A stretch of 64,000 nucleotides of DNA from an uncultured Gammaproteobacteria bacterium (GCA_964588435.1 CAZPPI010000002.1:3542-67541); one strand, 5' to 3'; shown: positions 4,023 through 60,482, counted from the stretch's first letter. Notes: a model not told the origin generated them from the sequence alone. Translations and numbers: made by a program.

Positions 4023-4030
4023 TTTGTTAG

Positions 4031-4104: not shown

Positions 4105-4178
4105 AAAAATAATTTGAGCACGCGCCTTCTCACTGTTAAAAATATTAAATTAAGTCTAAGATAAAGTCAAGTTTATAA

Positions 4179-4424: not shown

Positions 4425-4451
4425 ATTTTTTAAATATTATTTAAGATAATT

Positions 4452-6872: not shown

Positions 6873-6983
6873 CTTGATTTTTATTTCAATTTAGGTTATA
6901 ATTAAAATTACAAAAACTCCAAACTTAAATGAAAAAAATCTTGGAGTTTATTTTGTTGTTTTTTTAATGTAATATTTTTAAAT

Positions 6984-31349: not shown

Positions 31350-31359
31350 AATATTTTCT

Positions 31360-31803: not shown

Positions 31804-32949
31804 TTATTTTTTCGGACAAGCGGGAACACTAATATGAAGGTGGTCGCCTTCATTAAGAATAAAGCCGGGGCCACTTGTATACACACCACAAGCATTAGCT
31901 GCCTTAACTAAAAGAGTTGTATTTTCTTCATCGCCTAAATCTACGGCATAAGATTTATTAGTTCCAGTGCCGCCGCCATAATGACATGATCCGCAAGAAT
32001 GAACGCAGCCTTTACCGTTACAAGATGTTTCGCAAGCGGTTAAATTACCAATATATTTACTATCACTAATTGATGATATGCGACCGATTCCATTTGGTAA
32101 ATTACTTCTCATGCAGTTAAGGAAATTTGCTAATTCTGGGCTAGCATCATTAATTTGATTGATAATTCCTGGGTCCCATTTCCAACCATCAGTATTAATG
32201 TTAGAAGAATAAGAACCTGAAGGAGTGTTTGGTGCCTGCCCAGTAGTTATTGACTTTAATTTTGTTAACTCTGGATTAACTTCATAAAGAATCATATAAG
32301 CAGAGAATAATATAACTAAACCGGTAATACTTCCGCCGATTAAACCTTTGGCTTTTGAAACTTTTCCCGAGTCGCCACCTGAAGTAAGCCAGAGTAAACC
32401 GCCTGCCATTAACATTAAGGCAGCAAGAATTCCTCCTACAGTTAAACCGTAATTATAAATTGAGGCTACATATTTAGCAATCCAATTGATAGAGCAGGAA
32501 TAATTTCCGCCTTCTACATTAACACAACTAACATCAGCCTCATCAAAAACTAAACCAGGTATTTGTATTTGTAGCTCAGGCGCATTAAATTTTGGTGCGT
32601 TGCTAACGGGTGTAGGCGTATTTAGAACTATTATACTATCTTCTGGGGCACAGCAACAAACGGGAGCGCTGTATAGACCACAACTAGCCTTACTAATATC
32701 ACAATCAGGTGGCCCGTCAATTGAAAAAGTTGTTCCAACTCTGCCGCCTACATATAAACTAGCACAATATTCAGCGCTAGTTTTAGAACTGTCATTACAA
32801 CTAAAAGCACAATTAGCAGCTTGAGCATTATTTGGCCAAACAAGAATTAAACTATAAACAAAAAAAATTCCTAAAACAAATAAAGATAAATATTTTTTTT
32901 GAATAATTTTAAATTTTTTATTTCTTGATTTTCCTGAAAGAAATGTCAT
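31804..32949 (-). CDS. Cys-rich secreted membrane-hairpin protein, pilin-like (VirB2/TrbC-like topology), paralog 1
   Basis: Signal/TM. Cys-rich N-domain. Conserved two-helix hairpin core IYNYGLTVGGILAALMLMAGGLLWLTSGGDSGKVSKAKGLIGGSITGLVILFSAYMILYEVNPEL, shared almost verbatim with the ORF at 33866-34804. A Cys-rich C-terminal domain ends ...SYAVDLGD...GDHLHISVP. Confidence 0.6.
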   Translation of the reverse strand: MTFLSGKSRNKKFKIIQKKYLSLFVLGIFFVYSLILVWPNNAQAANCAFSCNDSSKTSAEYCASLYVGGRVGTTFSIDGPPDCDISKASCGLYSAPVCCCAPEDSIIVLNTPTPVSNAPKFNAPELQIQIPGLVFDEADVSCVNVEGGNYSCSINWIAKYVASIYNYGLTVGGILAALMLMAGGLLWLTSGGDSGKVSKAKGLIGGSITGLVILFSAYMILYEVNPELTKLKSITTGQAPNTPSGSYSSNINTDGWKWDPGIINQINDASPELANFLNCMRSNLPNGIGRISSISDSKYIGNLTACETSCNGKGCVHSCGSCHYGGGTGTNKSYAVDLGDEENTTLLVKAANACGVYTSGPGFILNEGDHLHISVPACPKK

Positions 32950-32963
32950 ATTTTTAGAAATTT

Positions 32964-33860
32964 TTATATTTTAGTCATTCTATATTTCTCAATATTTTTT
33001 TGTGCTAAATTTTGGATATCTTTTAAGTCAGATTTTTTTAGATGTTTAAATCTGCCTTGTTGCATTAAATACTCTTCAACTGACTTCGCCTGGAAGCCCT
33101 GACTAACACTCGAAGTACTTAATTTTCCCTCAACAAATTCAACTAAAGGGTATAAGCCAGTTTGAACTGCTAATTTACCAAACATCACCGCTTCGTCATT
33201 TTTTATTTTCCAACCAGGAATACAGGGACTTAAAATTTGGATATAACTTGGACCAGTAGTTGCTAAGGCTTTTTTAACTTTGTTAGTTATATCATCAGGA
33301 AAACCAGTTGTTGATTGGGCAACATATTTTAAGCCGTGAGCTAAAGCAATAGCTAGCATATCTTTTTTGACTTGACTTGAGCCGATAGATTCTTTACCAC
33401 TCGGACTGGTTGTCGTATCGGCTCCATAAGGAGTTGCGGCGGAAGCTTGAACGCCTGTATTAGAATAAGCTTCAGTGTCATAACAAATATATAAAATATT
33501 TTCTCCTCTTTCCCACATGCCGCTTATTTGTCCAAAACCAATATCATAAGTTCCGCCATCACCCGCTTGAACCACGACTTTTGTTTTTTTATCACCCTTA
33601 TTTTTCAGGGCGGCATTAATACCGCTAGCAACACTAGAAGCATTTTCAAATAAGGAATGAATCCAAGGTAAGCCCCAAGAACTTTGTGGATAGGCTGTTG
33701 TTGTTACCTCTAAGCAACCGGTTGCATTAGCGATAATTGTATCTTCGTTTAGACCTCGCATAACTGCTTGAGCGGCTGAAAGTTGACCACAACCAGCACA
33801 GGCATTATGGCCAGGGGAAAGAAATTTTTTCGGTTTTTTGGATGTATTGCTGTTTTTCAT
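32964..33860 (-). CDS. porB: pyruvate/2-oxoacid:ferredoxin oxidoreductase beta subunit (TPP-binding)
   Basis: N-terminal CAGCG, plus the TPP-binding motif GDGGTYDIG...YDTEAYSNTG. Confidence 0.88.
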   Translation of the reverse strand: MKNSNTSKKPKKFLSPGHNACAGCGQLSAAQAVMRGLNEDTIIANATGCLEVTTTAYPQSSWGLPWIHSLFENASSVASGINAALKNKGDKKTKVVVQAGDGGTYDIGFGQISGMWERGENILYICYDTEAYSNTGVQASAATPYGADTTTSPSGKESIGSSQVKKDMLAIALAHGLKYVAQSTTGFPDDITNKVKKALATTGPSYIQILSPCIPGWKIKNDEAVMFGKLAVQTGLYPLVEFVEGKLSTSSVSQGFQAKSVEEYLMQQGRFKHLKKSDLKDIQNLAQKNIEKYRMTKI

Positions 33861-33865
33861 AGAAA

Positions 33866-34804
33866 TTATTTTAGACTTTTTAACTTACAATATCCATTTG
33901 TTTTGTTAATATCATTTTTATCATTTCTTTCGCAATAAAATAATGAACCAGATTCAGCTTTTCCTTCCTGAGTAATAGTACATAAAGTTTTATCATCTCC
34001 TGGACGACATTCATCAGCGGTTATTTTTCTTCCTAAGATGGAACTATCAAAACAGTGTGATATTGCCCCTACTGTATTACCCCCAGTGACACAAGTGCAA
34101 CAAACATCAGAGGGATCATAACAATAATGAGTAGCGCCTTGTTGTCCAGCTGTAAACATTGTTCTGCATTCTCCATTTGAAGGACAAGAAGTTGCTTGAT
34201 AATCAGCTTCACAACTTGTAAAAATTTGTCCAGCTTTTTCTCCTGTTGTATATCTAGTGTAGCCCTTTTCTTCTTTAACTTCAAAAGTTATAGCTCCTTG
34301 TTCTTTATGACAACATTGAACGTCATAAGTTAAAATATTCTGTACCACTATCATTTTAACCCCCTTCATTTGTACTAAATCAGGATTAATTGTATTTAAA
34401 ATAAAATAAGCTCCCATTAAAATAACTACGCCCGTTATGCTGCCGGCAATAATACCTTTAGCTTTTGAAACTTTACCAGAATCACCACCGGAAGTAAGCC
34501 AAATTATGCCTCCAGCCATTAACATTAAAGCTGCTAAAATTCCACCAATCATTATTCCATAATCATAAATTGCTTTAATGTATCTAGCTAATAAGTCGCT
34601 TACAATAAAACCATCCTGATCGGAAGAGCCAACTGCAGTTTGTCCAGAAATTGAAGAAAAGGGAATTTCTATTTGTGGAGTAAAATAAATAGTTTTAATT
34701 TCTTCGCTTTGAGCTAAAATTGGTTTAGTCGCAAAAGCTGCGGCTAAAAAGAAGAGGGCGAAAACTACGATAAATATTTTTATTGTTTTGAAACTTTTAA
34801 CCAT
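33866..34804 (-). CDS. Cys-rich secreted membrane-hairpin protein, pilin-like (VirB2/TrbC-like topology), paralog 2
   Basis: Signal peptide. Hairpin core IYDYGIMIGGILAALMLMAGGIIWLTSGGDSGKVSKAKGIIAGSITGVVILMGAYFILNTINPDL. Cys-rich C-terminal domain of about 170 aa. The start overlaps the porA stop by 8 nt. Confidence 0.6.
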   Translation of the reverse strand: MVKSFKTIKIFIVVFALFFLAAAFATKPILAQSEEIKTIYFTPQIEIPFSSISGQTAVGSSDQDGFIVSDLLARYIKAIYDYGIMIGGILAALMLMAGGIIWLTSGGDSGKVSKAKGIIAGSITGVVILMGAYFILNTINPDLVQMKGVKMIVVQNILTYDVQCCHKEQGAITFEVKEEKGYTRYTTGEKAGQIFTSCEADYQATSCPSNGECRTMFTAGQQGATHYCYDPSDVCCTCVTGGNTVGAISHCFDSSILGRKITADECRPGDDKTLCTITQEGKAESGSLFYCERNDKNDINKTNGYCKLKSLK

Positions 34805-35990
34805 AAAATTTTAAGCTATCATTTTTTTTAGGGCTATCTATAATAATTTTTTTAATTATTACTTCGCTAACATCACGACCACCTAGACCGACAATATAAT
34901 TTTTAATCAGAGCGTTCCTATTTTTTTGCTTACTTAAAGTTTCAACGATATCATTATAAAGCGGGCCGGCTTGACCTAGACTAATAGCTTTCTCTAAAAC
35001 AGCGACATGAGTATTTGGTTTTATTAGTTTTAAGACTTCCTGAGCCGGGAAGGGACGATAGGTTTTTATTTTTAATAAACCAACTGAACTTTTAAGTTTT
35101 TTATCACTTATTATTGTTTCTAAAATTGTACCATTAAGTGAACCAAGGGCAACTAAAATTACTTTTGGATTTTTTGGTCCTAAATATTCAACTAAACCAT
35201 TATCTTTATTATTAAAACCTAAAATTTTAATCATCAAAGCATATTCTTTTTTTATTGAGTCTAATGATTTGATTAAATCTTGATGCAAACTTTCTCTGGT
35301 TTCCATGTAATAAGCAGGAGGGAAAAAAGCGCCAAAAGTTTTAGGATTTTTTGGATCAAGGTAAGTTCCTTTTGCCGGCTTATAATCGGGTAGGAATTTT
35401 TTAACTTTAGCTCTGGTTGGAATAATTACCGGTTCATAAGAATGGGTTAAAATAAAGCCGTCCATATTTACCATTACTGGTAGCCCGTGTTTTTCGGCTA
35501 TTTTATAAGCAAGCAGATGTTGATTAATTGCTTCTTGAGAATCAGAGGCAAAAAATTGGATAAAACCGGAATCTTTAATATTCATCACATCACTATGATC
35601 ATTCCAAATTGAAATTGGTGCCGAAATAGCGCGATTAGCACAGGTCATAACAACCGGCAATCTCATGCCGGCGATATTATGGATAACTTCGGCCATTAAT
35701 AGCAAGCCTTGTGAACTAGTAGCACTATAAACCCTAGCGCCCGCGGCACTTGCCCCTAAAACGATTGAAGCGGCTGCAAATTCGCTTTCAGCTCGTAAGT
35801 ATTCATAATCCGCTTCTCCCTCAGCTTTTATTTTAGCAAGATCTTCAACGATATGGGTCTGGGGAGTTATTGGATAAGCAGAAATAACATTTGGTTTAAT
35901 GTTTTTTATCGTTAAAGCGACCGCCCTTGAACCCTCAAGAATTTCTCTTTTTCCTTCATTAGTTTTATTTATAATTTTATTTTTTGTCAT
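34797..35990 (-). CDS. porA: pyruvate:ferredoxin oxidoreductase alpha subunit
   Basis: GSRAVALTIKNIKPNVISAYPITPQT...SATSSQGLLLM are PorA domain I motifs. Confidence 0.88.
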   Translation of the reverse strand: MTKNKIINKTNEGKREILEGSRAVALTIKNIKPNVISAYPITPQTHIVEDLAKIKAEGEADYEYLRAESEFAAASIVLGASAAGARVYSATSSQGLLLMAEVIHNIAGMRLPVVMTCANRAISAPISIWNDHSDVMNIKDSGFIQFFASDSQEAINQHLLAYKIAEKHGLPVMVNMDGFILTHSYEPVIIPTRAKVKKFLPDYKPAKGTYLDPKNPKTFGAFFPPAYYMETRESLHQDLIKSLDSIKKEYALMIKILGFNNKDNGLVEYLGPKNPKVILVALGSLNGTILETIISDKKLKSSVGLLKIKTYRPFPAQEVLKLIKPNTHVAVLEKAISLGQAGPLYNDIVETLSKQKNRNALIKNYIVGLGGRDVSEVIIKKIIIDSPKKNDSLKFYG

Positions 35991-36004
35991 AAATTTTCCA
36001 GTGA

Positions 36005-36274
36005 TTAAAAATCTTCTTCCATCCTAATAGCTTTAACTGGGCATTCTTTAGCACAAAGACCACAACCTTTACAATAATTATAATCGGGTATTGGTTTTAG
36101 TTTGTCATAGCCCTTAACTTTTTTCATCTCAATACAATTTTCAGGACAAATTTTGGCACAAAGACCACAGCTAATGCAGATATCTTTATCGATAATTGGT
36201 TTATGATTTCGCCAAGGGCCAGTTTTATTTTTAAGAGAACTATTTGGTTCAGCGATTAATTTTTTTATACTCAT
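36005..36274 (-). CDS. porD: pyruvate:ferredoxin oxidoreductase delta subunit (2x[4Fe-4S] ferredoxin)
   Basis: Two CxxCxxCxxxCP clusters: CISCGLCAKICP and CKGCGLCAKECP. Confidence 0.85.
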   Translation of the reverse strand: MSIKKLIAEPNSSLKNKTGPWRNHKPIIDKDICISCGLCAKICPENCIEMKKVKGYDKLKPIPDYNYCKGCGLCAKECPVKAIRMEEDF

Positions 36275-36282
36275 ATAATTAA

Positions 36283-36831
36283 TTATTTATTTGAAAAAGC
36301 TTTTTCAATCGCTTTAATATTTTTTTCAACAATTTCTTTGCCCTTATCTTTAAATTTTATTTCAATTGCTTTTTTTAAAGATTCAAGAGAAACGAGTTTG
36401 GTAAATTTAGCAAAAGCACCTAAAATAACGGTGTTAACGATGTTTTTGCCAATTATTTCTAAAGCAATTTCAGTTGCTGGAGAAAAGTATAAATTTTTTT
36501 TGTTTTTTAATTCTTCCCAGCGATTTTTTTTAGCGTTAATAATAATTTTTGTTTCATCATTAATACCAGTTAAAATATTATTAGAATCTAATAAACTTGA
36601 ATCTTGAATAATTAAAACACTTGGTTCATAAATCTGTTCCCTCGTAGTTATTTTTTTTCTACTAATTCTGGCGTAGGCTTGGATTGGTGCTCCGGTCCTT
36701 TCTACTCCAAAATTTGGAAAAGCTTGAGCTTCAAGTCCATCGTAGAAAGCGGCTATAGCAATTAATTCAGCGGCCGTTACCACACCTTGTCCGCCTCGAC
36801 CGTGTATTCTTATTTGTTCTAAATTGTTCAT
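36283..36831 (-). CDS. porG: pyruvate:ferredoxin oxidoreductase gamma subunit
   Basis: IRIHGRGGQGVVTAAELIA...FGVERTGAP is typical of the POR/KOR gamma subunit. Confidence 0.85.
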   Translation of the reverse strand: MNNLEQIRIHGRGGQGVVTAAELIAIAAFYDGLEAQAFPNFGVERTGAPIQAYARISRKKITTREQIYEPSVLIIQDSSLLDSNNILTGINDETKIIINAKKNRWEELKNKKNLYFSPATEIALEIIGKNIVNTVILGAFAKFTKLVSLESLKKAIEIKFKDKGKEIVEKNIKAIEKAFSNK

Positions 36832-37605: not shown

Positions 37606-37693
37606 AAACTTTTTAAATTGAAAATATAGCTAAATTAAGTTATAATTTAAACAAATACAGGGTATTTTGTTTAAATTTATTATAACATACTTT

Positions 37694-42593: not shown

Positions 42594-45500
42594 ATGAAAA
42601 ACTTTTTATTTTTTTTGGAAGATAAAAAACATAAAAATCTTAAAAATTGTTATTGGCTTTTTTTGATTTTTATTTTCGCTTTTTCTTTTAGTTTTTTTCA
42701 GATTCAAGAAGTAAAGGCTCAGGCTGTTGTAACTGATCCCGGAGCCATGGCGCAAAGAACGGTTGAATCGGTCAAACAAACATTTTGGCAGAAATTAGGG
42801 ACGGCTCTGAAGAAAGCGGGGTCCATTGCTTTTAATAGAACTCTACAAAGCTCTTTAAATAAAATTGCTTATGATGCCGCTAATTATATTGGTGCTGGTG
42901 GTGATGGTCAAAAACCATTATTTCGGACTGAGGGGTTGGGTGATTATATGAAAAAGATTGGTGATGAAGCGGGCGGTCAATTTTTAGAAACTTTTGTCAG
43001 AAATCTTGATACCTCCAATGCAACCTCCACTCTTTCTTGTGAAAAGCGTCTAGAGAATTGTTTAACCGATTGTTATCGTCAGGCTAATGGTTACGATCCA
43101 GCTGATGCAGAAAGTCTTAAGTATTTTAGAGATGGTGTGGCGGCTGGTTATGTTGGCGCTGGAGGGCAAGATACAAAGGGCGAGGTTATTGTCGCTGGAC
43201 AAGCTTGTGTTAAACAATGTGAACTTGGAAATACGAGTTGTGTTAGTAATCCTAATAATAATAAGTTAGGCTCAGCTTCTGATGTTAATTCTTTTAATGT
43301 TTGTCAGCCCTCATCAATTGAGGTGAAATTAAAAATCAGTCTTGGTTTAGTTGAACAGAATCGCCCGACTGGTCCAAATTGTACCGCGACCACAATAATT
43401 AATAATTGGGGTGATGATATTGATAAAAAGTTGGCTTCAATTTCTGATGGAAGTTTTTTAAAAAACATTGATAATATTTTTGATCCACGAGCGAATGATT
43501 TAGGAATTTATTTTTTGGCACGAACAGATCTTTCCGCACAATCAAAAATAGAAGTGGATAAGGCTGTATTGGAGGATACAAAAACTGGCGGCTGGATTGA
43601 TGTTAGAAATATTGCCGGTGAATTAAAAGGAACACCCGATACTGCTAAAAACGCTGAAGCCGATGCTAGAGCTATTAGAATAGCAAATTTTGGAAAGACT
43701 ACTGGTGATATTTTTGTTGATGCAGCTAATTTATTTCTAAATCAACTTGCAATTAGTGCTTATAATAATTTGATGCGAAAATTGTCTGATAAAAAAGCTG
43801 ATGCAGGGCCAGCTTTAGCTGATCCTGGAGTTGATCCTAATTTTTCTAGTGTTTCGAGTATGCGAGAGAAAACTAGAGTTCTAATAGAGACAAATTTTGA
43901 GTCGAAAGCTGATTATAGTGTTTTATCTGAATTAGCAGCTTGTCCTAATCCTGGAAATCCTGGACCAAACAATTGTGTAATTGATGACAGGTTTATGCAA
44001 GCTATTGTTGAACAGAAGACTGTTGGTGAAGCGATTAAAGAGGGTTATTTGAACTCGAACTGGAAAGTAGAAAAAGATGTTTTTGCTTCTGCTTATAATA
44101 ATCATTATTCTTTACGTAATATTAAAATTTTAAGAAAATATCGAATCGTCCCTCTTGCTTGGGAGGTTGCGATTGAGAAAGCTTTTGAAGATGAGGAGAT
44201 ACCGGAAAATGTTACCCTTGGTGATTTAGTCGCTTGTTTTTCTGAGAATGATGAATTTGATAAATTTAGTACTAATTTTAAGAGCAGTGATATAAGTTGG
44301 TGCCAGGGTTTAGTTGATCCAAACTGGGTTTTGAAAGCCCCACTTAATTATTGTGGTCAATCTGGCAGTGGTTCCCATATTCTTAATATGACGATGATTC
44401 CTAGTCTTTCTAGTAGTGAACAATTAATTATTACTCGTGCAGATGATTATTGTGCTGATAATCAAAGTTGTATTAAGGAAAGTAAAGAAGGTGCTTGTGA
44501 TCTTTATGGTTATTGTACTGAGGACCGAAGAACTTGGAATTTTGAAAGTGACTCTTGCTCTCCGATAAATAATACTTGTCAAAGTTTTATTAATACAAGT
44601 AATCAAGCAACCGCATCTTATTTAGAAAATACTCTTGATTATGGCGATTGTAACGCTGATTCGGCTGGTTGTCGTCGCTATTCTTTATTTGGTAAATATA
44701 ATGAAAATGGCTCTGTCTCTTGGAATCTTTTTAACAATTTATTCTTTAATAAAAATTTAGTTTCCTGTAATTCTGAAAATGAAGGTTGCTCTGAATTGAT
44801 GCGGATTAAGCCGACTTGGGGATTTAATTTTGTGACCGATTCTGCTTTTAATTTTTTTGGTCTTAATCAGGAACCGGCCGGATCTAAGCTCGGACCATGG
44901 GGAGTATTAGCTGGGGCTAACGCTCAGATTATTAATACTAACGAAGAAGCACCTGATTTTACCGGCAACTCAAAAGCTATTAAAATTTCTGGATCTAATG
45001 GGGCAGGGTTTGAATCAAGCTCTGAAGTTTTTCCTGAAAATTTACAAATTTTAATTAATCAAGATTATACTCTAAGTGCTGATATTTTCTTATTTAGTGG
45101 TGACAGAGTCCAAATGTTTTTAAATCCTGGCGATAAACAAGTGTCAACGGTTGTTAATCAGAGTGGTTATTGGCAAAGAGTTAGTTTAACAATTAATACT
45201 GATTCTGGTTTCTATGAGCCTAAATTTTCCTTTGTTGGTTATGGGTCTTCGGTTAGTTTTTATGTTAAAAATATTAAATTTGAATTAAGTGGTGTCGAGA
45301 CAACTTATAATAATTATGGTAGCTATATTAGTAGGGCAGGAAGCTTGTTATCAGCTCGATTTAGTCAAAAATTATTACCGGCTTATTTACATGAGACTTG
45401 TTATGTTGATTCTGTTTCAGCTTCAAAGGATTATACTTTAAAAAGTGATGCTCCAGCTATTTGTTCTAATTATGCTAGACAATGTAATCAGGATGAGGTT

Positions 45501-48500
45501 GGTTGTGAACTATTTATTAATAGTTATGATAATTTTTCAACTCCAGCTCAAGTAAATAGTTCTGACTATTGTGCTGGTGAATGTGTTGGTTACGACGTTT
45601 ATATTGCTAAAGAAAATTATTTTAATCCAACAGAAGCTCAGAATTTAATTCCTAATTCAACTACTAAATGTGCTCAGTCTGCCGTTGGTTGTAACGAATT
45701 TACTAATTTAGATGCAGTTGCTAAGGGTGGCGAGGGAAAAGAATATTATTCTGAATTAAAGCAATGTATCAAGCCAAATTCTGGGCAATGTGCTAATTTT
45801 TATACCTGGGAGAGCTCTGCTGGTGGTTATCAAATTAAAACTTATAGTTTACAAAAAGACAATAATAATAATCCTTTAATCAACTATGGCGATCAAGCTT
45901 CAGGTGACTGTAGCGATATCTTTGGTCTACCGCTTAGCGATCCTCGTTATAATCCTGATTGTAGAGAATTTAGAAACACTTCCGGCCAGGTTTCCTATCG
46001 TTTAATTTCAAGAGTCATAACTTGTTCAGATAATTGTTTCAGTTATCGTTTAAATAGCAATAATATTCATCCGACCGCTAAAACCCAGGCTGAATGTAAT
46101 AGTAGCAGTGATGAAACTTATTGGAATAGTTCAAATTCTACTTGTCTTACTTGTTTAAATGGCGGTAAGTGGGATACAAATCAAAATGCTTGTGTTTATC
46201 AAGCGATCCCTGGGGAAGGAAAATCTTGCCAAGCCTCTCAAGTCGGCTGTCGGGAGTATAATGGTAATCGTGGTAATGATGTTCGTTTAATTGCCAATTA
46301 TGATTTTGAAAATGGTCTTAGTGGTTGGTATTCAAACTGTACTGATGGAGTTGACTGGAGCCCAGTTGCTAATAATCAACAAGGAAGTTCACTATTCTAT
46401 AATTCTTCCGCTAGTTCCTGTGAATCGTCTGGTGGTGAAAAGGTTGCTAAGATAAAGCTTGGTTTAGAAATTAAAGCTGGAAGAGCTTATAGTTTGAAAT
46501 TTTTAGCTCGTTCTGCTGAAGCTAATATTTTAGAAATTTATTTTGAGAGTGTTGACGGCGATAGATATTTCTTTAATTTATCGGCGGTGGCTGAAAGAGA
46601 TGGCGCAGTATCAATTAAGGGTGGAAATGAATGGGCTATTTATCAAGTTAATTTAGAAAATGTGACTGAAACCCTAGGTTTTGATGGCACTTTAAATATT
46701 TCTGCTAGTCATGATTTTTATATTGATGATTTGCTTTTAACTGAGATTAGTAATCGTTATTATTTTATTAAAGATTCAATTAAAATTCCTGATGTTTGTT
46801 ATTATGATAATTCAGGAAAATATCAAGGCGCTGATTATAATCTAGGCTGCTCTCAATATAAAGACAAAGATAATTATATTCATAATTTACATAATTTTAC
46901 CAAGCTTTGTCCTAGCTCTTCGATTGGTTGTGAACAAATGATTACAACTAATAATTATACTTCGCCCCAGGCTATGTCTTGGAATGTGAATAATTTAGGA
47001 CAATCTTGCGACCCTGGCGATGAAGGGTGTTTAACAGTTGAAAGAGATAAGATAATATATGTGGTCTATGATAAATCAAAATCTTGTCTTGCTAATGACA
47101 TCGGTTGTAGCCGAATGGGGGAGGGTCTTGGTTCTGGTTATGATATTAGTTGGTCTGATGTTTTTAAATTGAATAACCCTAATAATTACAATCAAACTTT
47201 ATGTGCTGAGGGAGATTTAGGTTGTGAGGAATATCGAGATATTAATAGTGGTGGTCTAAGTTACTTTAGAAATCCAGCAAATAATTTATGTGTTTATCGT
47301 TCCAGTAGTAATCCTGAGATTTCTGGTAAGGCTTGGTATAAAGTTCCAGTAAAAAGATGTGATTTAAATAGTAATGGCTCGATTGAAGGACTTGAAGTTG
47401 GGGGGACAATTTGTTCTAAAGATGAAGATTGCGTTTCAGGAACTTGCGTTGTTGATAACAATGATTATACTTGTTCAGTTTCCTATTTAAAAACTATTGG
47501 TTATGGTGGTTTAGGGGCGGCAATCCCTGTACCTGATAAATCGGTGGCTTTGTGTGATGCCGCCGCCGCTGGTTGTACAGAATATATTGATCCAGTTAGT
47601 AAATTTAATCCTAATTTAGTAAAAAATCCCGAATATAATGATGGTGGCAAGGGTTGGGGTGAAGATATTTGGCCTCAAGTTAATGGTAATCCAATAGGTA
47701 AAACTGAACAGGTCATTAGTTTAGAGAGAAATAAACTTTATGGTTTTAGAGCGACGGATAAGAGTGGGGGTGTTGTTGACGGAGGAGTTAGCCTTAAATT
47801 TATTGGTGATGTTAGAATTTTAGGCGAGGAGACTATCGATACGATAAAAAAATTAGGAACTAGTAATAATTTTGGCGATGTAACTAAATTATTAACTATT
47901 AATGCCAATTATCCTTATATTATTTTTAATTCTTTGAGTAATTATTCAGCTCTCTTATCGGGCGGGGACGCAAGTTATATTATTGAATTAAAAGAATTAG
48001 CAATTGACTATAATATTAGAGGGGATGTTGATGGTAGTAGTTGTAATGGTTTAGTAAATTTTGATACTGGTTGTATTTTATTTAATGAACGCTCAATTGC
48101 TGGGGCAGCTGGTTTGGAATTAAATAAATTTAATGCCTTGGCGGGTGATGGTGTGCCAGTCATTAGTTATAGCCCCTATAATGCCAATAAACTATTAAAA
48201 GTAAGACCTGATAGAACTTGTGCTTCTTGGCTTTCTTGTACTTCCTATGCTTTAAATAGTGATGGTTCAAAATCTTGTAGCTCAGTTGCTGAATGTAATC
48301 TATTAGATGATAAAAATGAGTGCCTTAATTTTATTGTCAGACCAGAAGCTGAAAGCATTGTTTTTGATGCAGAAAAAAATCGTAATGCGACCGGTTACGC
48401 TTTGGCGGGAAATTATTATTTTAACAACATTAAGGAAGTTGGTCTTAATACTAGTGTTCGTTATGACTTTGAAGAAAATATTCCTCCTTTGAGCTGTGTA

Positions 48501-50942
48501 CGGGCCAATAGTGCTGGAGAGCCCTTGATTAATGACACCGGCTTTTGTTCCTTTGATGAAAACATAATTAAAGACAGCTTGATTCGTGAACCGGGACTAA
48601 TTAGCTATCCGGCTAAAGGAAAAACTTATTTAAAAGTTTCTCCTCTTCAAGCAATTTCTCCTCATGCAGGAGGCTCATATGTTGTTTTGCCAGAAGCGGG
48701 AGAATATTATTTAAGTTATTTACTTAATACTCAGAATTCTAATACTTCAGCTAAAGTATCAATTGAAAACGTTTCTAATAGAAATATTATGCATGACATG
48801 GGAGTAGAAGAACAAGCCCCTAATGGTTGGGAGAGAAAAATTCATAAAATAACAACAGTTAAGGATAATGTTAAAATTAGAATTTATTTAAGTTTAGTGG
48901 AAACGGGTAGTTCGGGGCCAGTTTATTTTGATGATATAAATATTGAAACAGTTTTAAGGGTGGCTGAGAATGATTATCGTGCTCGTGATTGTCGACTTTA
49001 TCCGAACTCTTCTAGTTTTGGTTGTCAGGAAGTTGAAAATTCGGTGGTTAGAAATGGGGTTGAGGGTTATTGTCTTGAATATGATTTAGCTAATTCAAGT
49101 GTTTGTCAACTCTGGATGCCAATTGATAGAATTGCCTCGTCTAAAATAAATAGTAATCAGCTTGGTTATAATGGTAAATACCCTCTTAGTTATTGTGCTT
49201 TGGCTAACAGTAATTTTCTTTATCTTGAAAAAAGAGAAGCGGCTGTAGTTAAAGAAGAAAGTATTAGAAGAAATAGTGATGATTATTTAGATGTTCGTGT
49301 TTGTTATTATCCGGGAACAGCTCTTAATTATTGTCAGTCAATGTTTTATGCTAGTAGTTCGATTGAAATAATGCCAACTTCAACTCCTTTAGGACAACCA
49401 ATTAGTACTTCTGGCGAATATAACGTTACCATTACCTATGATAATAACAATCCTGATAGTGAGCCAATTATTACTGTTGGTGGTCAACAAGATTTAACTC
49501 AAGAAGAGCAAGAAGAATTACCAGAAAATCTTGTTATTGTTGGTGGAAAAGTTAAAGATTTAGGGAATATTCCGGTGGTTTCTGAATATTGTGGTGATTC
49601 AGGAAATTATTTCTTAATGGTCACCCAAGATTTGAAACAAGAAAACGGGTTATTTAAACGAGATGATGTGGCCATCACCTACCTTTGTTTACCAATTAAT
49701 AATTATAATTATTATACTCCTGATAGAACCTTTAGATACGTAGCGACAAAATCAGAACCGATAACAACTTTTAGTGGTGTGCAGAAAGTTTATCCAATTA
49801 CTGATGGTTGGTATTTAGCTGATGGTTTTCATAACGCTGCGGGGATAGCCCCAGAAAATAAAAGAGGGGGTAGTCCTGGTGGTTTTGATGAACTTTATAA
49901 TGCTGATCCACCTCTTCGAGTTTTGGATTTAAATTATTCAATACCAGCTGGAGAAGATGATTTAAAAAAGATTTCAAGTAGTGATCCTGATGAAGTTTTT
50001 CGTTTAACTTGTGATAAATTTGTTGAAGCCGTTTCTGGTTCCGGGGATAATATGGCTTGGACTAGCAGAGTTGCGCTTGGTTCAAATTATATAGTTACTT
50101 CAACAAATCCGATTATACGATACAATGGTTATATTAGACAGATTGGCGACATTCCTTTCGGAGCAGCTTCTTGGCCCGATGATTTTAATTTGGCAAAAAG
50201 TGAGAGGGTTCCTTTATATAATCAATACTCAGCTAAAAATAAAGAAGATGTTTTTGCTGGACGTCCTTATGGTTGTAACGCTAAAGATGCTCAGGGGGTC
50301 GCTAACTGTTCTAGTATTGGCTATTGCAGCGCTAATCCCGACGTTTATTGTTTAGTTGATAATACCGGACTATTTAATGCCAATACTTATGATATCACTC
50401 GTCATTCTTGTGGTACTTGGGGAACCTGTAAACCTCTATGGACCATTCCTACAGGAGCCTATCAATCTAGCGTGCTAATATCTTATCTTAAAGATTACCC
50501 TAGCGCCCTTAGTCAATTATTTATCCAAGCTCCAGTTGCTTATGAGTTTAAAGATGATGCTGGGGGTTATGTTAGTGCTACTGGATATTATAATTCTAAT
50601 ATGGCTGGGTCTAATCCTGGAGTTTCAAACCTTAAACTTTATAAAGCTGATACGAGCATTGAATTTAATGCTGATTCTGGAATTAGAGCTGGTAATTACC
50701 GCTTGGAATTTAATTCAAATATTGACTCTGATCATCAACCACTGAAAGAAATATTTATTGATTGGGGGGATGGATTTAAGCAGGTTATTATTGGTGAGGA
50801 TTCAAAGAGTAGCTCATCTGAAGCTAGACATATTTTCTACCATTTCTATCCTGATAACAGAGCGTTAGATAGCACAATTATCAGGGTTAGAGTTTATGAT
50901 AATTGGAAGAAAGGATCAACTGATGCGATTTTAACAAGATAA
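42594..50942 (+). CDS. giant (2782 aa) secreted Cys-rich surface protein with CBM4/9-like jelly-roll modules
   Basis: Signal peptide ending VKAQA. Uninterrupted 8.3 kb ORF with more than 100 Cys. At least three modules with the N-x-[DE]-F-E-x-G-x-x-G-W carbohydrate-binding signature: around nt 44815-45290 (IKISGSNGAGFESS...), 46295-46750 (NYDFENGLSGW...FYIDDLLLTEI) and 47620-48010 (NPEYNDGGKGWGEDIW...). Confidence 0.85.
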   Translation: MKNFLFFLEDKKHKNLKNCYWLFLIFIFAFSFSFFQIQEVKAQAVVTDPGAMAQRTVESVKQTFWQKLGTALKKAGSIAFNRTLQSSLNKIAYDAANYIGAGGDGQKPLFRTEGLGDYMKKIGDEAGGQFLETFVRNLDTSNATSTLSCEKRLENCLTDCYRQANGYDPADAESLKYFRDGVAAGYVGAGGQDTKGEVIVAGQACVKQCELGNTSCVSNPNNNKLGSASDVNSFNVCQPSSIEVKLKISLGLVEQNRPTGPNCTATTIINNWGDDIDKKLASISDGSFLKNIDNIFDPRANDLGIYFLARTDLSAQSKIEVDKAVLEDTKTGGWIDVRNIAGELKGTPDTAKNAEADARAIRIANFGKTTGDIFVDAANLFLNQLAISAYNNLMRKLSDKKADAGPALADPGVDPNFSSVSSMREKTRVLIETNFESKADYSVLSELAACPNPGNPGPNNCVIDDRFMQAIVEQKTVGEAIKEGYLNSNWKVEKDVFASAYNNHYSLRNIKILRKYRIVPLAWEVAIEKAFEDEEIPENVTLGDLVACFSENDEFDKFSTNFKSSDISWCQGLVDPNWVLKAPLNYCGQSGSGSHILNMTMIPSLSSSEQLIITRADDYCADNQSCIKESKEGACDLYGYCTEDRRTWNFESDSCSPINNTCQSFINTSNQATASYLENTLDYGDCNADSAGCRRYSLFGKYNENGSVSWNLFNNLFFNKNLVSCNSENEGCSELMRIKPTWGFNFVTDSAFNFFGLNQEPAGSKLGPWGVLAGANAQIINTNEEAPDFTGNSKAIKISGSNGAGFESSSEVFPENLQILINQDYTLSADIFLFSGDRVQMFLNPGDKQVSTVVNQSGYWQRVSLTINTDSGFYEPKFSFVGYGSSVSFYVKNIKFELSGVETTYNNYGSYISRAGSLLSARFSQKLLPAYLHETCYVDSVSASKDYTLKSDAPAICSNYARQCNQDEVGCELFINSYDNFSTPAQVNSSDYCAGECVGYDVYIAKENYFNPTEAQNLIPNSTTKCAQSAVGCNEFTNLDAVAKGGEGKEYYSELKQCIKPNSGQCANFYTWESSAGGYQIKTYSLQKDNNNNPLINYGDQASGDCSDIFGLPLSDPRYNPDCREFRNTSGQVSYRLISRVITCSDNCFSYRLNSNNIHPTAKTQAECNSSSDETYWNSSNSTCLTCLNGGKWDTNQNACVYQAIPGEGKSCQASQVGCREYNGNRGNDVRLIANYDFENGLSGWYSNCTDGVDWSPVANNQQGSSLFYNSSASSCESSGGEKVAKIKLGLEIKAGRAYSLKFLARSAEANILEIYFESVDGDRYFFNLSAVAERDGAVSIKGGNEWAIYQVNLENVTETLGFDGTLNISASHDFYIDDLLLTEISNRYYFIKDSIKIPDVCYYDNSGKYQGADYNLGCSQYKDKDNYIHNLHNFTKLCPSSSIGCEQMITTNNYTSPQAMSWNVNNLGQSCDPGDEGCLTVERDKIIYVVYDKSKSCLANDIGCSRMGEGLGSGYDISWSDVFKLNNPNNYNQTLCAEGDLGCEEYRDINSGGLSYFRNPANNLCVYRSSSNPEISGKAWYKVPVKRCDLNSNGSIEGLEVGGTICSKDEDCVSGTCVVDNNDYTCSVSYLKTIGYGGLGAAIPVPDKSVALCDAAAAGCTEYIDPVSKFNPNLVKNPEYNDGGKGWGEDIWPQVNGNPIGKTEQVISLERNKLYGFRATDKSGGVVDGGVSLKFIGDVRILGEETIDTIKKLGTSNNFGDVTKLLTINANYPYIIFNSLSNYSALLSGGDASYIIELKELAIDYNIRGDVDGSSCNGLVNFDTGCILFNERSIAGAAGLELNKFNALAGDGVPVISYSPYNANKLLKVRPDRTCASWLSCTSYALNSDGSKSCSSVAECNLLDDKNECLNFIVRPEAESIVFDAEKNRNATGYALAGNYYFNNIKEVGLNTSVRYDFEENIPPLSCVRANSAGEPLINDTGFCSFDENIIKDSLIREPGLISYPAKGKTYLKVSPLQAISPHAGGSYVVLPEAGEYYLSYLLNTQNSNTSAKVSIENVSNRNIMHDMGVEEQAPNGWERKIHKITTVKDNVKIRIYLSLVETGSSGPVYFDDINIETVLRVAENDYRARDCRLYPNSSSFGCQEVENSVVRNGVEGYCLEYDLANSSVCQLWMPIDRIASSKINSNQLGYNGKYPLSYCALANSNFLYLEKREAAVVKEESIRRNSDDYLDVRVCYYPGTALNYCQSMFYASSSIEIMPTSTPLGQPISTSGEYNVTITYDNNNPDSEPIITVGGQQDLTQEEQEELPENLVIVGGKVKDLGNIPVVSEYCGDSGNYFLMVTQDLKQENGLFKRDDVAITYLCLPINNYNYYTPDRTFRYVATKSEPITTFSGVQKVYPITDGWYLADGFHNAAGIAPENKRGGSPGGFDELYNADPPLRVLDLNYSIPAGEDDLKKISSSDPDEVFRLTCDKFVEAVSGSGDNMAWTSRVALGSNYIVTSTNPIIRYNGYIRQIGDIPFGAASWPDDFNLAKSERVPLYNQYSAKNKEDVFAGRPYGCNAKDAQGVANCSSIGYCSANPDVYCLVDNTGLFNANTYDITRHSCGTWGTCKPLWTIPTGAYQSSVLISYLKDYPSALSQLFIQAPVAYEFKDDAGGYVSATGYYNSNMAGSNPGVSNLKLYKADTSIEFNADSGIRAGNYRLEFNSNIDSDHQPLKEIFIDWGDGFKQVIIGEDSKSSSSEARHIFYHFYPDNRALDSTIIRVRVYDNWKKGSTDAILTR

Positions 50943-51006
50943 TTATTTTACTGTTAAGAAGAAAAAAAATAAGGTATAATTTAGAGAGAATTAAGTTTAG
51001 TTGCTT

Positions 51007-51543
51007 ATGCACGTTGATGATAATTTATTAGAAAGGACTAGTGATGAGGATGAGGATGAAGATTTTTCTTTTGATGGTGAGTCTTATGACCAAGGTGAAG
51101 AAGAGAGTCAAATAGGGAATCAGGGTCGAGCAAGAGATGATGTTGACGACAGTGCCCCCCAGTCTTTAAGAGAGGCGAGAATAATAGAGAAAGCTAAACT
51201 TGATAGTCAAAGTAAAAAAGAGGAGTTAAAAAAAACAGCAAAAGCAGAGGCGTCTTCAAAACTTTTAACTATATGCTTTTCCCTTAAAACTCTAGGTGCT
51301 TCCTGGGGACTATCAGCTCTTTATGGAAATGTTCATCTTTTTTTAAAGTATACAGTTAATAATAAATTAAGGGGATTAAGTTTAAGAGAGTCAATGATAT
51401 TGTTGTTGTGTGATGTAATTATAATTTTATTAATTATTATCCAGGTTGCTCTTATTGCTTTAATTGTTGGCTTTATTAAAAATCCTCTTGAAGCTATTAA
51501 AAGTATATTAGAAAGCGTGTTCCCGAATTGGAAAAATATTTAA
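51007..51543 (+). CDS. small protein with acidic N-terminus and C-terminal hydrophobic hairpin (possible T4SS membrane component)
   Basis: DEDEDEDF-rich N-terminal half. Two C-terminal hydrophobic segments (LLTICFSLKTLGASWGLSALYG and MILLLCDVIIILLIIIQVALIALIVGFI). Immediately upstream of the VirB6-like gene. The ORF track starts at TTG 51001. Confidence 0.45.
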   Translation: MHVDDNLLERTSDEDEDEDFSFDGESYDQGEEESQIGNQGRARDDVDDSAPQSLREARIIEKAKLDSQSKKEELKKTAKAEASSKLLTICFSLKTLGASWGLSALYGNVHLFLKYTVNNKLRGLSLRESMILLLCDVIIILLIIIQVALIALIVGFIKNPLEAIKSILESVFPNWKNI

Positions 51544-51574
51544 TTGGTTTTATTAAAAAATAAGTTGCAAAAAA

Positions 51575-54169
51575 ATGAAAATTAATATTTTCAAGAAAAT
51601 AAATAACTCCCTGGGAAAAAAATCAATAATTATTATTAGTGTTTTGGTTTTTTTGGGCTTATCTTTAGCCGCTCCGGCTTCTGCTGATTGGGCAATCACA
51701 GTATTTGGTGGTATCTTAAAAATAATTATTGGCGGGGTTGGACTTATTTTAATTTTAGCTATTAGAGCTTTAGTTTATGTTGCTCAATATTCAACTTTTT
51801 TAAACTCGGGCGCCGTTACCCTTGGCTGGGTTATAGTTCGTGATCTTTGTAATATGTTTTTTGTGGTCGTTCTTTTAATTATTGCTTTTGGAACAATTCT
51901 AAATATAGAAAAATATAATTATAAAAAGTGGTTGCCAAAATTAATTTTGATGGCAATTTTAATTAATTTTTCTAAAACTATTTGTGGGGTTTTAATTGAT
52001 ATTGCTCAAGTGGTGATGCTTACTTTTGTTAATTCTTTTAGCACTATTGGTGCCGGAACCTTGGTTAATGTTTTGGGGATTACCGATATTTTGCAAATAG
52101 CAAAAAGTGGTAATGAAGATATTGGTTTTTGGACGGTTATCGGTGCTTATTTACTTGGCTTAGCCTACGTTATTGTGTCTCTAATAGTAGTTATTACGAT
52201 GATATCGATGCTCGCTATTCGTATTGTCATGATTTGGATTTATGTTGTTTTATCACCTTTAGCTTATCTTTTGTCAGCTTTTCCCGGGGGTCAATCTTAT
52301 GCTTCAAAATGGTGGACTGAGTTTACTAAAAATTTAATTGTTGGACCAGTTTTAGCTTTTTTTCTTTGGTTATCTTTTGCTGCTTTAACCAGTGATCAAG
52401 TAAGAGATGCTCAAACAATAGATGAGGCTAGTAGATTAGAGCAAAATAAGTTATTAGGTTTTGATCCTGATGAGGCCTCAATCGAAACTAAAGCTTCTAG
52501 TCCTGGAGCTTTAATTAAATTTATCATTGCAATTGGGATGCTTGTTGGTGGTCTTAAAATTGCTCAAGAGGTTGGCGGTGCCGCCGGTTCTATGGCAGGC
52601 AAGGGAATGGCAGCGGTTAATAAAGCGGGCAAGATTGGTTTAGCGGGTGCGGCGGCGATTACTGGAGTAAGAGCGGCTAAGGGAATTTATAAAAATTATA
52701 GCTCTGCCAGAAAATCAGCCCGAGAAGATAAATATAAGAATGCCGCAGTTAAGATGGCGGATGGAATTGGGAGGGCTAAAAAAAGTGTCGGCGGAGCGGT
52801 TACTGGTGGTTTGCAAAAAGTTAAAGATAGTACTTTTGGTAGAAGAGAGGCAAAAGCTAAAAAACTTCAAGCTGAGGCTAGAGTAGAGAGTACAGAAATC
52901 GATACAATAAAACAGAACCTTAATCAAAAGAAGGGTGTGGTCGGTGATTATCAGTATGATGAGGGTGTTAAGAGTTGGCGTCATAGCATAACAGGAATGG
53001 TAACTGGAGAAGAAAGAGTTAGAGAAAAGGCTGATGAGATTATTAAAGCTAAAGATGACGTTGTTAGCGCTAAACAAACAGAGGCAGAGAAACTACATTT
53101 CAAACAACAAAAAATAGATGATGTTTTGAAATATGGAGCCTTAGCTGCTGGAGGCATAGCTGGACTTGCCCTTGGCGGCGTCCCAGGACTTCTTGTTGCT
53201 GGAGGGGCCGCAGTTGGAGCTTCGCGTGGTTATGATAAATTTAAAAATGCTGGTAAAACCGATTTAGGGATTGCTTCTGGATTTCGTCTAAAGGAGATTA
53301 AGAAGGAAAAAGATGCTTTGAAAGATGAGGATAATGGAAGTGTGATTGCTAAGATGGATGATCGTACTATTAGCGCTTTTGAGAGAGCAGCTGCGGCTTT
53401 AGAAGCGATGGATAGAGGTTTGCTTTCCTCTGAACAAGCAGAATCTAAGAAAAAAATGATTGCGAATGAGATTGGCGGAGTCGATGAGAATGGTGATTTT
53501 AAGGATAAAAAAGTTGGTAATTATTTTGAATCGATTGCTGAAAGAAAAAATATTTCCGCTTCTTCTGATTTTCAAGATTTAAAAAGTGAAAATCCTGAAG
53601 TAAAGAGTCGAGCTGAAAGAAATGTTAGAGATAATGTTGAAAAAGGTAATTATAGCCTAGAATCTCTTGACGTAGGAGCAATTAGAGCGATTGGTCCTCA
53701 ATTAGTTGCCGCGATGAAGGCTAAAGACTTTGGCGCTCAATTTACTGCAATGAAAGACCAAGCTAAAAAGCGAGAGATTGTTGAGATGTTAAAGAAACTG
53801 GTTAATAAAGATACTAGCGGATTGCCAAGCGGTAGTATTGAAAAAAACAATGCTGAAGCGGGAAAATTAGAGGCGATGAAGAGATTGAATCAAGTTACGG
53901 ATTTAAATACGGCAACGGTTGGAATTTCTGATCCCGTAGATAGACAGGCTAAAAAAGAAGCGATTTTGGCTGATTTATCTTTTACTCAATTGGCGGATGT
54001 TTTTAATGGCAATGATAAAAAACAGCAAGATGCAATTGTTGAAGCTATACAAAAGTCTAGTCGTGAGGATAAACTTAGTATTTTTGTGACCGCAGAAAAA
54101 TCTTTAAGGGGAACATCTCAGGTTGCTAAAGATTTGCGCTCTGAGGCTAAGCTTAATTTAGAAGTTTGA
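51575..54169 (+). CDS. VirB6/TrbL-like polytopic T4SS inner-membrane protein with ~500-aa hydrophilic C-terminal extension
   Basis: Signal/TM followed by 6-7 TM helices in about 300 aa, with an architecture like TrbL/VirB6/ConG. Then a Gly/Ala-rich linker and a long charged C-terminal domain. Confidence 0.55.
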   Translation: MKINIFKKINNSLGKKSIIIISVLVFLGLSLAAPASADWAITVFGGILKIIIGGVGLILILAIRALVYVAQYSTFLNSGAVTLGWVIVRDLCNMFFVVVLLIIAFGTILNIEKYNYKKWLPKLILMAILINFSKTICGVLIDIAQVVMLTFVNSFSTIGAGTLVNVLGITDILQIAKSGNEDIGFWTVIGAYLLGLAYVIVSLIVVITMISMLAIRIVMIWIYVVLSPLAYLLSAFPGGQSYASKWWTEFTKNLIVGPVLAFFLWLSFAALTSDQVRDAQTIDEASRLEQNKLLGFDPDEASIETKASSPGALIKFIIAIGMLVGGLKIAQEVGGAAGSMAGKGMAAVNKAGKIGLAGAAAITGVRAAKGIYKNYSSARKSAREDKYKNAAVKMADGIGRAKKSVGGAVTGGLQKVKDSTFGRREAKAKKLQAEARVESTEIDTIKQNLNQKKGVVGDYQYDEGVKSWRHSITGMVTGEERVREKADEIIKAKDDVVSAKQTEAEKLHFKQQKIDDVLKYGALAAGGIAGLALGGVPGLLVAGGAAVGASRGYDKFKNAGKTDLGIASGFRLKEIKKEKDALKDEDNGSVIAKMDDRTISAFERAAAALEAMDRGLLSSEQAESKKKMIANEIGGVDENGDFKDKKVGNYFESIAERKNISASSDFQDLKSENPEVKSRAERNVRDNVEKGNYSLESLDVGAIRAIGPQLVAAMKAKDFGAQFTAMKDQAKKREIVEMLKKLVNKDTSGLPSGSIEKNNAEAGKLEAMKRLNQVTDLNTATVGISDPVDRQAKKEAILADLSFTQLADVFNGNDKKQQDAIVEAIQKSSREDKLSIFVTAEKSLRGTSQVAKDLRSEAKLNLEV

Positions 54170-54241
54170 TAAAGCCAAGAGAAGATCCTTTCTGTTAGAA
54201 TATTTAATGATAAGCTATTGTTAAAAAACAAAATTTAAACT

Positions 54242-55408: not shown

Positions 55409-55409
55409 A

Positions 55410-56819: not shown

Positions 56820-56822
56820 AAT

Positions 56823-57254: not shown

Positions 57255-57263
57255 AATATAATT

Positions 57264-57929: not shown

Positions 57930-57938
57930 TTTTTATCT

Positions 57939-59825: not shown

Positions 59826-59862
59826 AGTACAGCTAATTTTTAAAATAATTAATTTAAAATAT

Positions 59863-60477: not shown

Positions 60478-60482
60478 AATTT

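Follow-up and report, generated by a model that had tools for sequence, protein, structure and literature searches.

Patescibacteria, or bacteria of the Candidate Phyla Radiation (CPR), depend on host bacteria, and the one cultivated model cannot do without its monoderm-type type IV secretion system (T4SS) or the VirB2-like pilins of that system (PMC12102498, PMC10633639). The pilin family, PF18895 (T4SS_pilin) in Pfam, has already been published and is usually counted within +/-20 genes of virB4 in CPR (PMC12102498), and its T4SS linkage has been established in the cultivated patescibacterium (PMC10633639). CPR T4SSs typically come with sets of pilins that are divergent paralogues, and most Patescibacteria genomes have no recognisable VirB1 wall hydrolase (PMC12102498, PMC10633639). 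Here we describe two pilin-like proteins encoded in a 64,000-nt stretch of CAZPPI010000002.1 (3542-67541), called the window below and numbered from its first letter; all statements about the window cover these 64 kb. The genome belongs to the ultra-small Patescibacteria/CPR, its nearest public relatives being metagenome-assembled genomes of Candidatus Falkowbacteria. The two genes are embedded in porGDAB, which encodes pyruvate:ferredoxin oxidoreductase (POR), one between porA and porB (pos1) and one after porB (pos2), and a dsbA-like gene stands at the head of the unit. The explanation that we favour, and to which we give an even chance as a whole, is that these VirB2-family hairpins display disulfide-rich or wall-degrading modules, their genes being expressed together with those for DsbA and POR.

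With the patescibacterial PF18895 pilins, such as the array that is essential in Ca. Southlakia epibionticum ML1 and those surveyed in PMC12102498, the two proteins share the hidden Markov model (HMM) family, a signal peptide with a basic-loop hairpin, the occurrence in each genome as several paralogues that have diverged, and a gene position no more than ~20 genes from virB4. Unlike those pilins, they are 3-4 times larger, carry cysteine-rich ectodomains and include one paralogue family that is fused to hydrolases, and their genes are not arrayed but interleaved with por behind a DsbA-like gene, outside the T4SS cluster. The catalytic kinds that occur in the pos2 family (SLT, CHAP/NlpC-P60-like, metallopeptidase) are also those of VirB1 and of the monoderm proteins PrgK, TraG(pIP501) and TcpG, which in monoderms are membrane-tethered and are presumed to make room for the apparatus by local opening of the wall. 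The anchor of pos2, however, is a VirB2-like hairpin instead of a single transmembrane (TM) helix, its gene lies outside the T4SS cluster, and its catalytic class varies between close strains. A conserved N-terminal, putative trafficking part, a recombining C-terminal enzyme, a sharp breakpoint and incongruent histories recall CdiA-CT, Rhs, LXG and 'evolved' VgrG/PAAR proteins, but pos2 has no downstream immunity gene, all of its modules are wall hydrolases, and its secretion route is putative. F-like T4SSs encode the thioredoxin-fold proteins TrbB/TraF alongside cysteine-rich transfer proteins. Here, too, an extracytoplasmic thiol-disulfide protein is encoded with cysteine-rich surface proteins of a T4SS family, although the DsbA-like gene of the window heads a metabolic operon and has CxxS in place of CxxC. 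The por genes resemble porGDAB of anaerobes in their four subunits and in the order gamma-delta-alpha-beta; porA and porB are adjacent in ~130 non-CPR porGDAB loci but stand apart here and in most CPR-type loci, with one or two pilin-like genes between them.

No mention of por-embedded pilins, of pilin-hydrolase fusions or of large cysteine-rich pilin ectodomains was found in the papers searched. The deeply conserved interleaving with dsbA and porGDAB in CPR, the large disulfide-rich ectodomains and the strain-variable hydrolase cassette on pos2 appear to be new. An earlier note on this DNA had called the coupling of pilins to pyruvate oxidation unusual; the embedding in por does look undescribed, but the novelty of the proteins was overstated, their family being known (PMC12102498).

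Pilin-like genes in a dsbA-por unit

Seven minus-strand open reading frames (ORFs) follow one another head to tail from 37605 to 31804 (dsbA-like, porG, porD, porA, pos1, porB, pos2), with successive distances of 3, 8, 14, -8, 5 and 14 nt, the negative value being the overlap of the pos1 start with the porA stop, and the last two the spaces between the pos1 end and porB and between the porB end and pos2. The earlier note had given the order as porG-porD-porA-[pilin-like 2]-porB-[pilin-like 1], with the 8-nt overlap and the 5-nt gap, and in all of this it was right; its six genes belong together, but the DsbA-like gene belongs to the unit as a seventh member. All four POR subunit domains are present, intact and far above the Pfam cut-offs (POR, two Fer4, POR_N with PFOR_II, and TPP_enzyme_C). 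No terminator-like hairpins were found between the seven genes, and an Rfam scan of the window returned tRNA-Ala only and no regulatory RNA ahead of the operon. In the 61-nt region 5' of the dsbA-like gene, a promoter-like TTTAAA-17-TATATT on the minus strand (37651-37623) is a consensus match only, and promoter-like sites in that region are no more frequent than the shuffled expectation. One transcript of all seven genes, starting upstream of the dsbA-like gene, is probable from this layout; co-transcription, 'almost certain' in the earlier note, is plausible, and gaps of at most 14 nt and the lack of an internal terminator-like site agree with it.

The layout recurs in many other genomes. 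An identical pos1 protein is found on four other contigs with unchanged neighbours, and pos1 homologues at 57%, 50%, 47%, 44%, 43% and 39% identity are all encoded in the same block, leuS(-) exoIII(-) / dsbA porG porD porA pilin porB pilin / rnhA(-) recJ(-) lepA(-), as are two sampled pos2 homologues; the block is found in relatives whose PorA is 90-92%, 74% and 59-71% identical. For an unbiased count, a species-dereplicated genome collection and metagenomes were each searched with PorA only. In 16 of the loci obtained, porG is directly preceded by a DsbA-like gene, the mark of the CPR-type loci, and 14 of these are informative past porA. A PF18895-type gene directly follows porA in 10 of these 14, and no pilin gene does in four (L013, L020, L021 and L103); two more contigs, incomplete upstream, have porA and then a pilin gene. 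None of the ~130 informative loci without DsbA (Omnitrophota, Zixibacteria, Firestonebacteria, Actinomycetota and others) has a pilin gene after porA, and the median distance between porA and porB in them is 3 nt. Two Paceibacter-like genomes, with PorA 54-55% identical and other flanks, read dsbA-porGDA-pilin-porB, and their pilins have 791 and 819 aa and 24-27 cysteines, against a range of 12-27 cysteines for all por-embedded pilins. Strain-specific rearrangement noise, a possibility that the earlier note had raised, was rejected: of 28 DsbA-type loci that are informative, at least 24 have the layout, in related and in distant CPR and including the Paceibacter-like ones with their different flanks. 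As a synteny marker, the insertion of a pilin gene between porA and porB, in an operon headed by a DsbA-like gene, is clean and easy to score, and it ties surface machinery to core metabolism in genomes that are streamlined. Should this tie be co-expression and no more, it still warns annotators that 'metabolic operons' of CPR carry envelope genes.

The protein encoded by the first gene matches the Pfam families Thioredoxin_4 (3e-17) and DSBA (3e-10); the cytoplasmic side of its N-terminal anchor is positively charged, and its thioredoxin domain is predicted to face outward. A DsbA-like gene precedes porG in 30 of 30 CPR-type loci and in 0 of 145 other loci. The active site is CVYS (CxxS) in the window and CVYS, CPYS or CEFS in close relatives, the second cysteine being gone, and most por-linked homologues in other CPR have a CPxC-type CxxC. 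It is an attractive idea that the DsbA-like protein serves the disulfides of the cysteine-rich pilin-like proteins, and a 2782-aa surface protein with 89 cysteines, encoded 5 kb away, would be a further client.

Other CPR genomes have unrelated genes at the porD-porA or porA-porB junctions, namely small toxin-antitoxin-like ORFs, a nucleotidyltransferase-like gene and a lipoprotein-like gene, and por operons of CPR seem to receive insertions often and to tolerate them. Small paired ORFs and a 129-aa helical protein are among these inserts. The hairpin proteins might alternatively be coupled to POR directly, tethering it to the membrane or, jointly with the DsbA-like protein, connecting the oxidation of pyruvate with a thiol/disulfide process outside the cytoplasm. 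Such a role would suit an insertion that deep CPR lineages keep at one exact place, between porA and porB, a pos1 start codon that overlaps the porA stop, a DsbA-like gene that heads CPR por operons even where the pilin is missing, and a very strongly conserved cytoplasmic loop. We nevertheless consider it very improbable: the hairpin is devoid of cysteines and cofactor motifs, so that no electron path is evident, the POR subunits are ordinary by Pfam, four CPR-type por operons do without the insert, genes of unrelated kinds occupy CPR por junctions as well, and the partner domains are wall hydrolases and not redox modules. The por linkage is most economically read as co-expression from a strong operon.

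A shared VirB2-like hairpin

The profile search proposed in the earlier note places both proteins in PF18895, whose gathering cut-off is 26.6 bits: pos1 scores 30.0 bits and is above it, pos2 scores 26.0 bits and is 0.6 under it, and pos2 orthologues reach 30.9-33.4 bits. At E<=1e-3 the family is matched by 60 of 62 pos1 homologues and 102 of 112 pos2 homologues. The TrbC/VirB2 profile PF04956 has no match in either window protein at E<=0.1 and is matched by only 5 of the 112 pos2 homologues (best E 5.9e-6); as judged from the profiles, kinship to that family is at the superfamily level only.

The cores of pos1 and pos2 are 65% identical over 80 aa (BLASTP E 2e-34), with 38 of 43 residues identical in the centre, so the shared core seen in the earlier note is real, although 'near-identical' over ~60 aa was slightly generous. 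Third codon positions in this centre are identical in only 18 of 38 cases, the synonymous sites having diverged, and hence the likeness is kept by protein-level selection and not by recent gene conversion. In a neighbour-joining tree of the 85-aa cores, drawn without support values, proteins of the pos1 and pos2 positions fall into mostly separate clades, which makes the pair an old one. Recent duplication or gene conversion as the source of the near-identical cores was rejected on both grounds. By the evidence of their sequences, pos1 and pos2 are old paralogues under purifying selection and members of the patescibacterial VirB2-like family PF18895.

Hydropathy after Kyte-Doolittle marks segments at 18-42, 167-192 and 202-224 of pos2 and at 1-32, 78-107 and 117-139 of pos1. 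An AlphaFold2 model of pos1, built on a 62-sequence alignment with a mean predicted local distance difference test (pLDDT) of 84, has helices at 71-104 and 109-139, ~30 residues each and with pLDDT ~90, and the short basic loop that joins the two helices is SGGDSGKVSKAK. The VirB2/TrbC-type two-helix hairpin with a short basic loop, proposed earlier from the sequence, is thus found by PF18895, by hydropathy and by structure prediction alike. As in VirB2, the signal peptide would be cleaved, the N- and C-domains would lie outside and the basic loop would be cytoplasmic; the cysteine counts, 14 in pos1 and 18 in pos2, fit an extracytoplasmic location of the ectodomains. A sortase-substrate or other anchor family was rejected, with no Pfam or NCBIfam match to one and no LPxTG motif noticed on reading the sequences. 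Neither protein has the plain form of a PF18895 pilin with little beyond the hairpin, pos1 having 312 aa and pos2 381 aa.

Ectodomains and the replaceable C-domain of pos2

In pos1, a signal peptide (~aa 1-31) and a short N-segment with a conserved FTPQIEIP motif are followed by the hairpin (aa 71-139; 34388-34594) and by a cysteine-rich, beta-rich C-domain (aa 150-312; 33869-34357). In pos2, a signal peptide (~aa 1-44, with the cleavage site between AQA and A) and a cysteine-rich N-domain (aa 45-150, 10 cysteines) precede the hairpin (aa 155-234; 32248-32487), and the C-domain (aa 236-381) has 8 cysteines. The ectodomains around the core measure about 105 to 170 aa in the two proteins. Cysteine-rich ectodomains, which had been said to flank the core of both, do so on both sides in pos2 and only on the C-terminal side in pos1, where all of the cysteines are C-terminal. 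The C-domain of pos1 is modelled mostly at pLDDT >90 and has nine cysteine columns that are >=90% conserved. A Foldseek search with it against the PDB gave no match, no Pfam domain was found in the C-domain of the 62 pos1 homologues, and the domain is rare, with seven representatives among 1.84 billion clustered proteins. Our guess from the model is a lineage-specific, disulfide-stabilised binding or adhesion module.

The C-domains of the pos2 family are of another kind. Its 112 homologues include members with the Pfam domains VanY (4), Peptidase_M15 (3), NlpC/P60 (4), Amidase_5 (3), 3D (4), Amidase_2 (3), SLT (1) and SLT_3 (1), amounting to six hydrolase classes, and apart from one marginal Ycf66_N match all partner domains are wall hydrolases. 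In strain L001, whose POR is ~100% identical to that of the window, the pos2 position is occupied by a 410-aa protein that is 98% identical to pos2 through the N-domain and hairpin and then continues into an unrelated C-domain, NlpC/P60 (26.3 bits against a cut-off of 23). DNA identity between the two is ~99% to the first helix and drops within the second; past an NPELT motif the sequences cannot be aligned until, just downstream, the convergent RNase H gene is reached, whose 3' end is again homologous. The exchanged segments are 31807-32244 (minus strand) in the window and 6370-6894 in L001; the breakpoint lies inside the conserved hairpin, the far end just ahead of the RNase H gene. Other pairs diverge in the opposite sense, with identities of 51% in the N-domain and core and 74% in the C-domain between the window and L008, and of 79% and 89%, respectively, between L001 and L005. 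The histories of the N-part and the C-domain are incongruent, and the C-domain is a replaceable cassette.

The C-domain that the window itself carries has no match in Pfam or NCBIfam, the M15 profiles included; a PDB profile search returned noise only, and hhalign against the VanY-type C-domains of sister proteins gave a probability of 0.7%. It does have conserved counterparts of the zinc and catalytic motifs of LAS peptidases (MEROPS M15 type, Hedgehog/DD-peptidase fold), which are His...Asp and His-x-His or Glu-x-x-His. In an alignment of nine sequences, S86-C-H88-Y-G90, Y99-x-x-D102 and H135-x-H137 (domain numbering) are invariant, and we would read the first of these motifs as SxHxxG...xAxD with a 7-residue insert. 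From the motifs, weak fold evidence and a position that otherwise holds only wall hydrolases, the domain is probably a LAS/M15-like zinc peptidase. No immunity gene lies immediately downstream of pos2, where the next gene, in the window and in relatives, is the convergent RNase H gene.

The hairpin proteins might also be housekeeping autolysins or surface proteins, in which the hairpin is a mere membrane anchor, no T4SS is involved and the cell's own wall is remodelled during growth and division. NlpC/P60, VanY/M15, Amidase_2, SLT and 3D do make up the usual autolysin repertoire, the chromosomal neighbourhood, with murJ, lepA, recJ and leuS, is a housekeeping one, and the linkage to virB4 is loose. 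We hold this to be unlikely, as a swap of catalytic class between strains with ~100% identical POR is not expected of housekeeping autolysins, and the core, cytoplasmic loop included, is far more conserved than a plain anchor needs; such conservation between old paralogues suggests a specific partner, and PF18895 proteins are T4SS-linked and essential elsewhere (PMC10633639).

Three further observations concern wall hydrolases in these genomes. In L176 (6820-10315), three genes follow porB, the first two being PF18895 genes with Peptidase_M15_4 and VanY and the third matching the core HMM only, as if the paralogue with the hydrolase had expanded locally, the extra copies after porB being local duplications. 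In L177 (8001-9893), a 630-aa fusion of PF18895 with an SLT lytic transglycosylase is encoded outside por, between a LemA/M48 peptidase pair and radA and near type IV pilus genes. In the window, another secreted wall hydrolase, a LysM-LysM-Peptidase_M23 protein, is encoded at 4452-5702 on the minus strand; LysM/Peptidase_M23 hydrolases are listed among the VirB1-associated domains in CPR (PMC12102498).

The T4SS-like cluster and the rest of the window

A monoderm-type T4SS-like cluster occupies a large part of the plus strand of the window (Table 1). Pfam annotation of the cluster ORFs revealed no PF18895 gene among them, and tblastn, a custom core HMM and Pfam found no pilin core in the 64 kb beyond pos1 and pos2; the earlier statement that the T4SS-like locus has no VirB2 of its own therefore stands. 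Between the two genes and the VirB4-like gene the distance is 15-17 genes (21-25 kb), and the immediate conserved neighbours of the two are por and dsbA. Being within +/-20 genes of virB4, both would already be counted as VirB2 near virB4 in published surveys.

It had been suggested on this ground that the two proteins are the missing structural pilus subunits of the adjacent T4SS, which by analogy would polymerise into a pilus decorated with ectodomains. The pilin of conjugative pili with solved structures has both of its termini on the outside, so that appended domains are not barred by topology. Both proteins belong to PF18895 and are the sole such genes in the window, the T4SS cluster has none, their distance from virB4 is inside the published neighbourhood (PMC12102498), and divergent paralogous pilins are what CPR genomes typically have (PMC12102498, PMC10633639). 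Their size, which reaches 820 aa in L017, nevertheless contrasts with the ~100 aa of ordinary VirB2-like pilins; one paralogue family carries enzymes instead of adhesin-like or bare termini; domains of 150-170 aa on every subunit of a helical pilus would be sterically doubtful; the conserved linkage is to por and dsbA, not to virB4; and small pilins may lie in the genome beyond the 64-kb window. A role as pilus subunits is accordingly doubtful in our estimation.

The explanation that we prefer, display of modules by VirB2-family hairpins, would work as follows. Instead of forming a bare pilin, the hairpin would carry large extracytoplasmic modules, pos2 being a hairpin-anchored peptidoglycan hydrolase with a replaceable catalytic C-domain and pos1 displaying a lineage-specific disulfide-rich beta domain, possibly for binding or adhesion. 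The seven genes would be expressed from a single transcript that begins upstream of the dsbA-like gene, with the POR genes supplying a strong, constitutive expression context for the pilin-like genes and the DsbA-like protein serving the disulfides of pos1, pos2 and other cysteine-rich surface proteins. The nearby monoderm-type T4SS would most likely handle the hairpin, as such systems do VirB2-like subunits elsewhere, and so bring the enzymes to the site of secretion or attachment, a place from which they could breach the wall of the cell itself or of the host bacterium. In effect this would be a VirB2-VirB1 fusion, with the wall-hydrolase activity that seems to be missing from most CPR T4SS loci. 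Pilin hairpins fused to interchangeable hydrolases may thus be candidates for the missing VirB1 activity and for strain-specific host interaction, their catalytic domains being small. A bolder version, which we put forward tentatively and consider improbable, takes the VirB2-like hairpin as a trafficking module by which the T4SS displays or delivers polymorphic wall-degrading effectors (LAS/M15, NlpC/P60, amidase, SLT, 3D) against the host wall, the embedding in dsbA-por coupling attack to energy metabolism; if true, it would define a new effector class that fuses the roles of VirB2 and VirB1.

Several points weigh against display with co-expression. Co-transcription is plausible from the spacing of the genes alone. 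The active site of the DsbA-like protein in this lineage is CxxS and not CxxC, so that the protein may be no disulfide oxidase here, and its gene stays upstream of por in the four loci that have no embedded pilin. The unrelated inserts between porA and porB fit passive insertion tolerance as well as functional coupling. The T4SS link is drawn by analogy with the family, the conserved neighbour being por and not virB4, and the SLT-pilin homologue of L177 stands in yet another gene context.

Table 1. Features of the window and, in the last row, inserts at por junctions on other contigs
Feature	Coordinates	Strand	Remarks
Divergent intergenic region 5' of the dsbA-like gene, probable operon promoter	37606..37666	-	61 nt
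dsbA-like gene, first of the unit	36835-37605	-	N-terminal TM anchor; ends 3 nt upstream of porG
porG, POR gamma subunit	36283-36831	-	PF01558 POR 1.4e-40
porD, POR delta subunit, 2x[4Fe-4S] ferredoxin-like	36005-36274	-	Fer4 families down to 1.9e-14
porA, POR alpha subunit	34797-35990	-	POR_N 1.2e-69, PFOR_II 4e-20
pos1, pilin-like	33866-34804	-	Between porA and porB; PF18895
porB, POR beta subunit, thiamine pyrophosphate (TPP)-binding	32964-33860	-	TPP_enzyme_C 7.5e-21
pos2, pilin-like	31804-32949	-	After porB; PF18895 family
RNase H gene, convergent	31330-31764		Follows pos2
Small TSP3-repeat protein	41919-42581	+	Precedes the giant surface protein
Giant surface protein	42594-50942	+	2782 aa, 89 cysteines; secreted; no Pfam domain
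Monoderm-type T4SS-like cluster	42594..60477	+	PrgI 1.1e-6; TraG P-loop/AAA_10 6e-30
PrgI/VirB3-like	56823-57254	+	Pfam PrgI
VirB4-like ATPase	57939-59825	+	Pfam TraG P-loop/AAA_10
Unrelated genes at CPR por junctions	L016 7289-7678; L091 4954-5804; L092 5194-5618; L099 2450-3262, 681-1301; L103 5323-5979

The window is an ordinary piece of chromosome with a G+C content of ~33% and the genes polA, rpoB, rpoC, ftsK, murJ, lepA, recJ, leuS, radA and recG. The TSP3-repeat and giant cysteine-rich proteins are encoded as a pair directly upstream of the T4SS-like genes, and the pair is kept in relatives. The T4SS-like genes at 51001-60477 (plus strand) include Pfam-less proteins of 180, 864, 388, 469, 221 and 204 aa, the one of 864 aa being a polytopic membrane protein. 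Adjoining the cluster are radA (60462-61829) and recG (62813-63967), which matches the co-localisation of CPR T4SSs with recombination genes (PMC12102498). GC skew and gene orientation both switch near 6.9 kb (1-7000 against 7000-62000). From 6.9 to 61.8 kb all genes are on the plus strand except for the dsbA-por-pilin unit, which is the sole minus-strand block between 6984 and 61829 and in which the skew turns negative locally; the pattern may reflect a strand bias related to replication, with a single conserved head-on operon.

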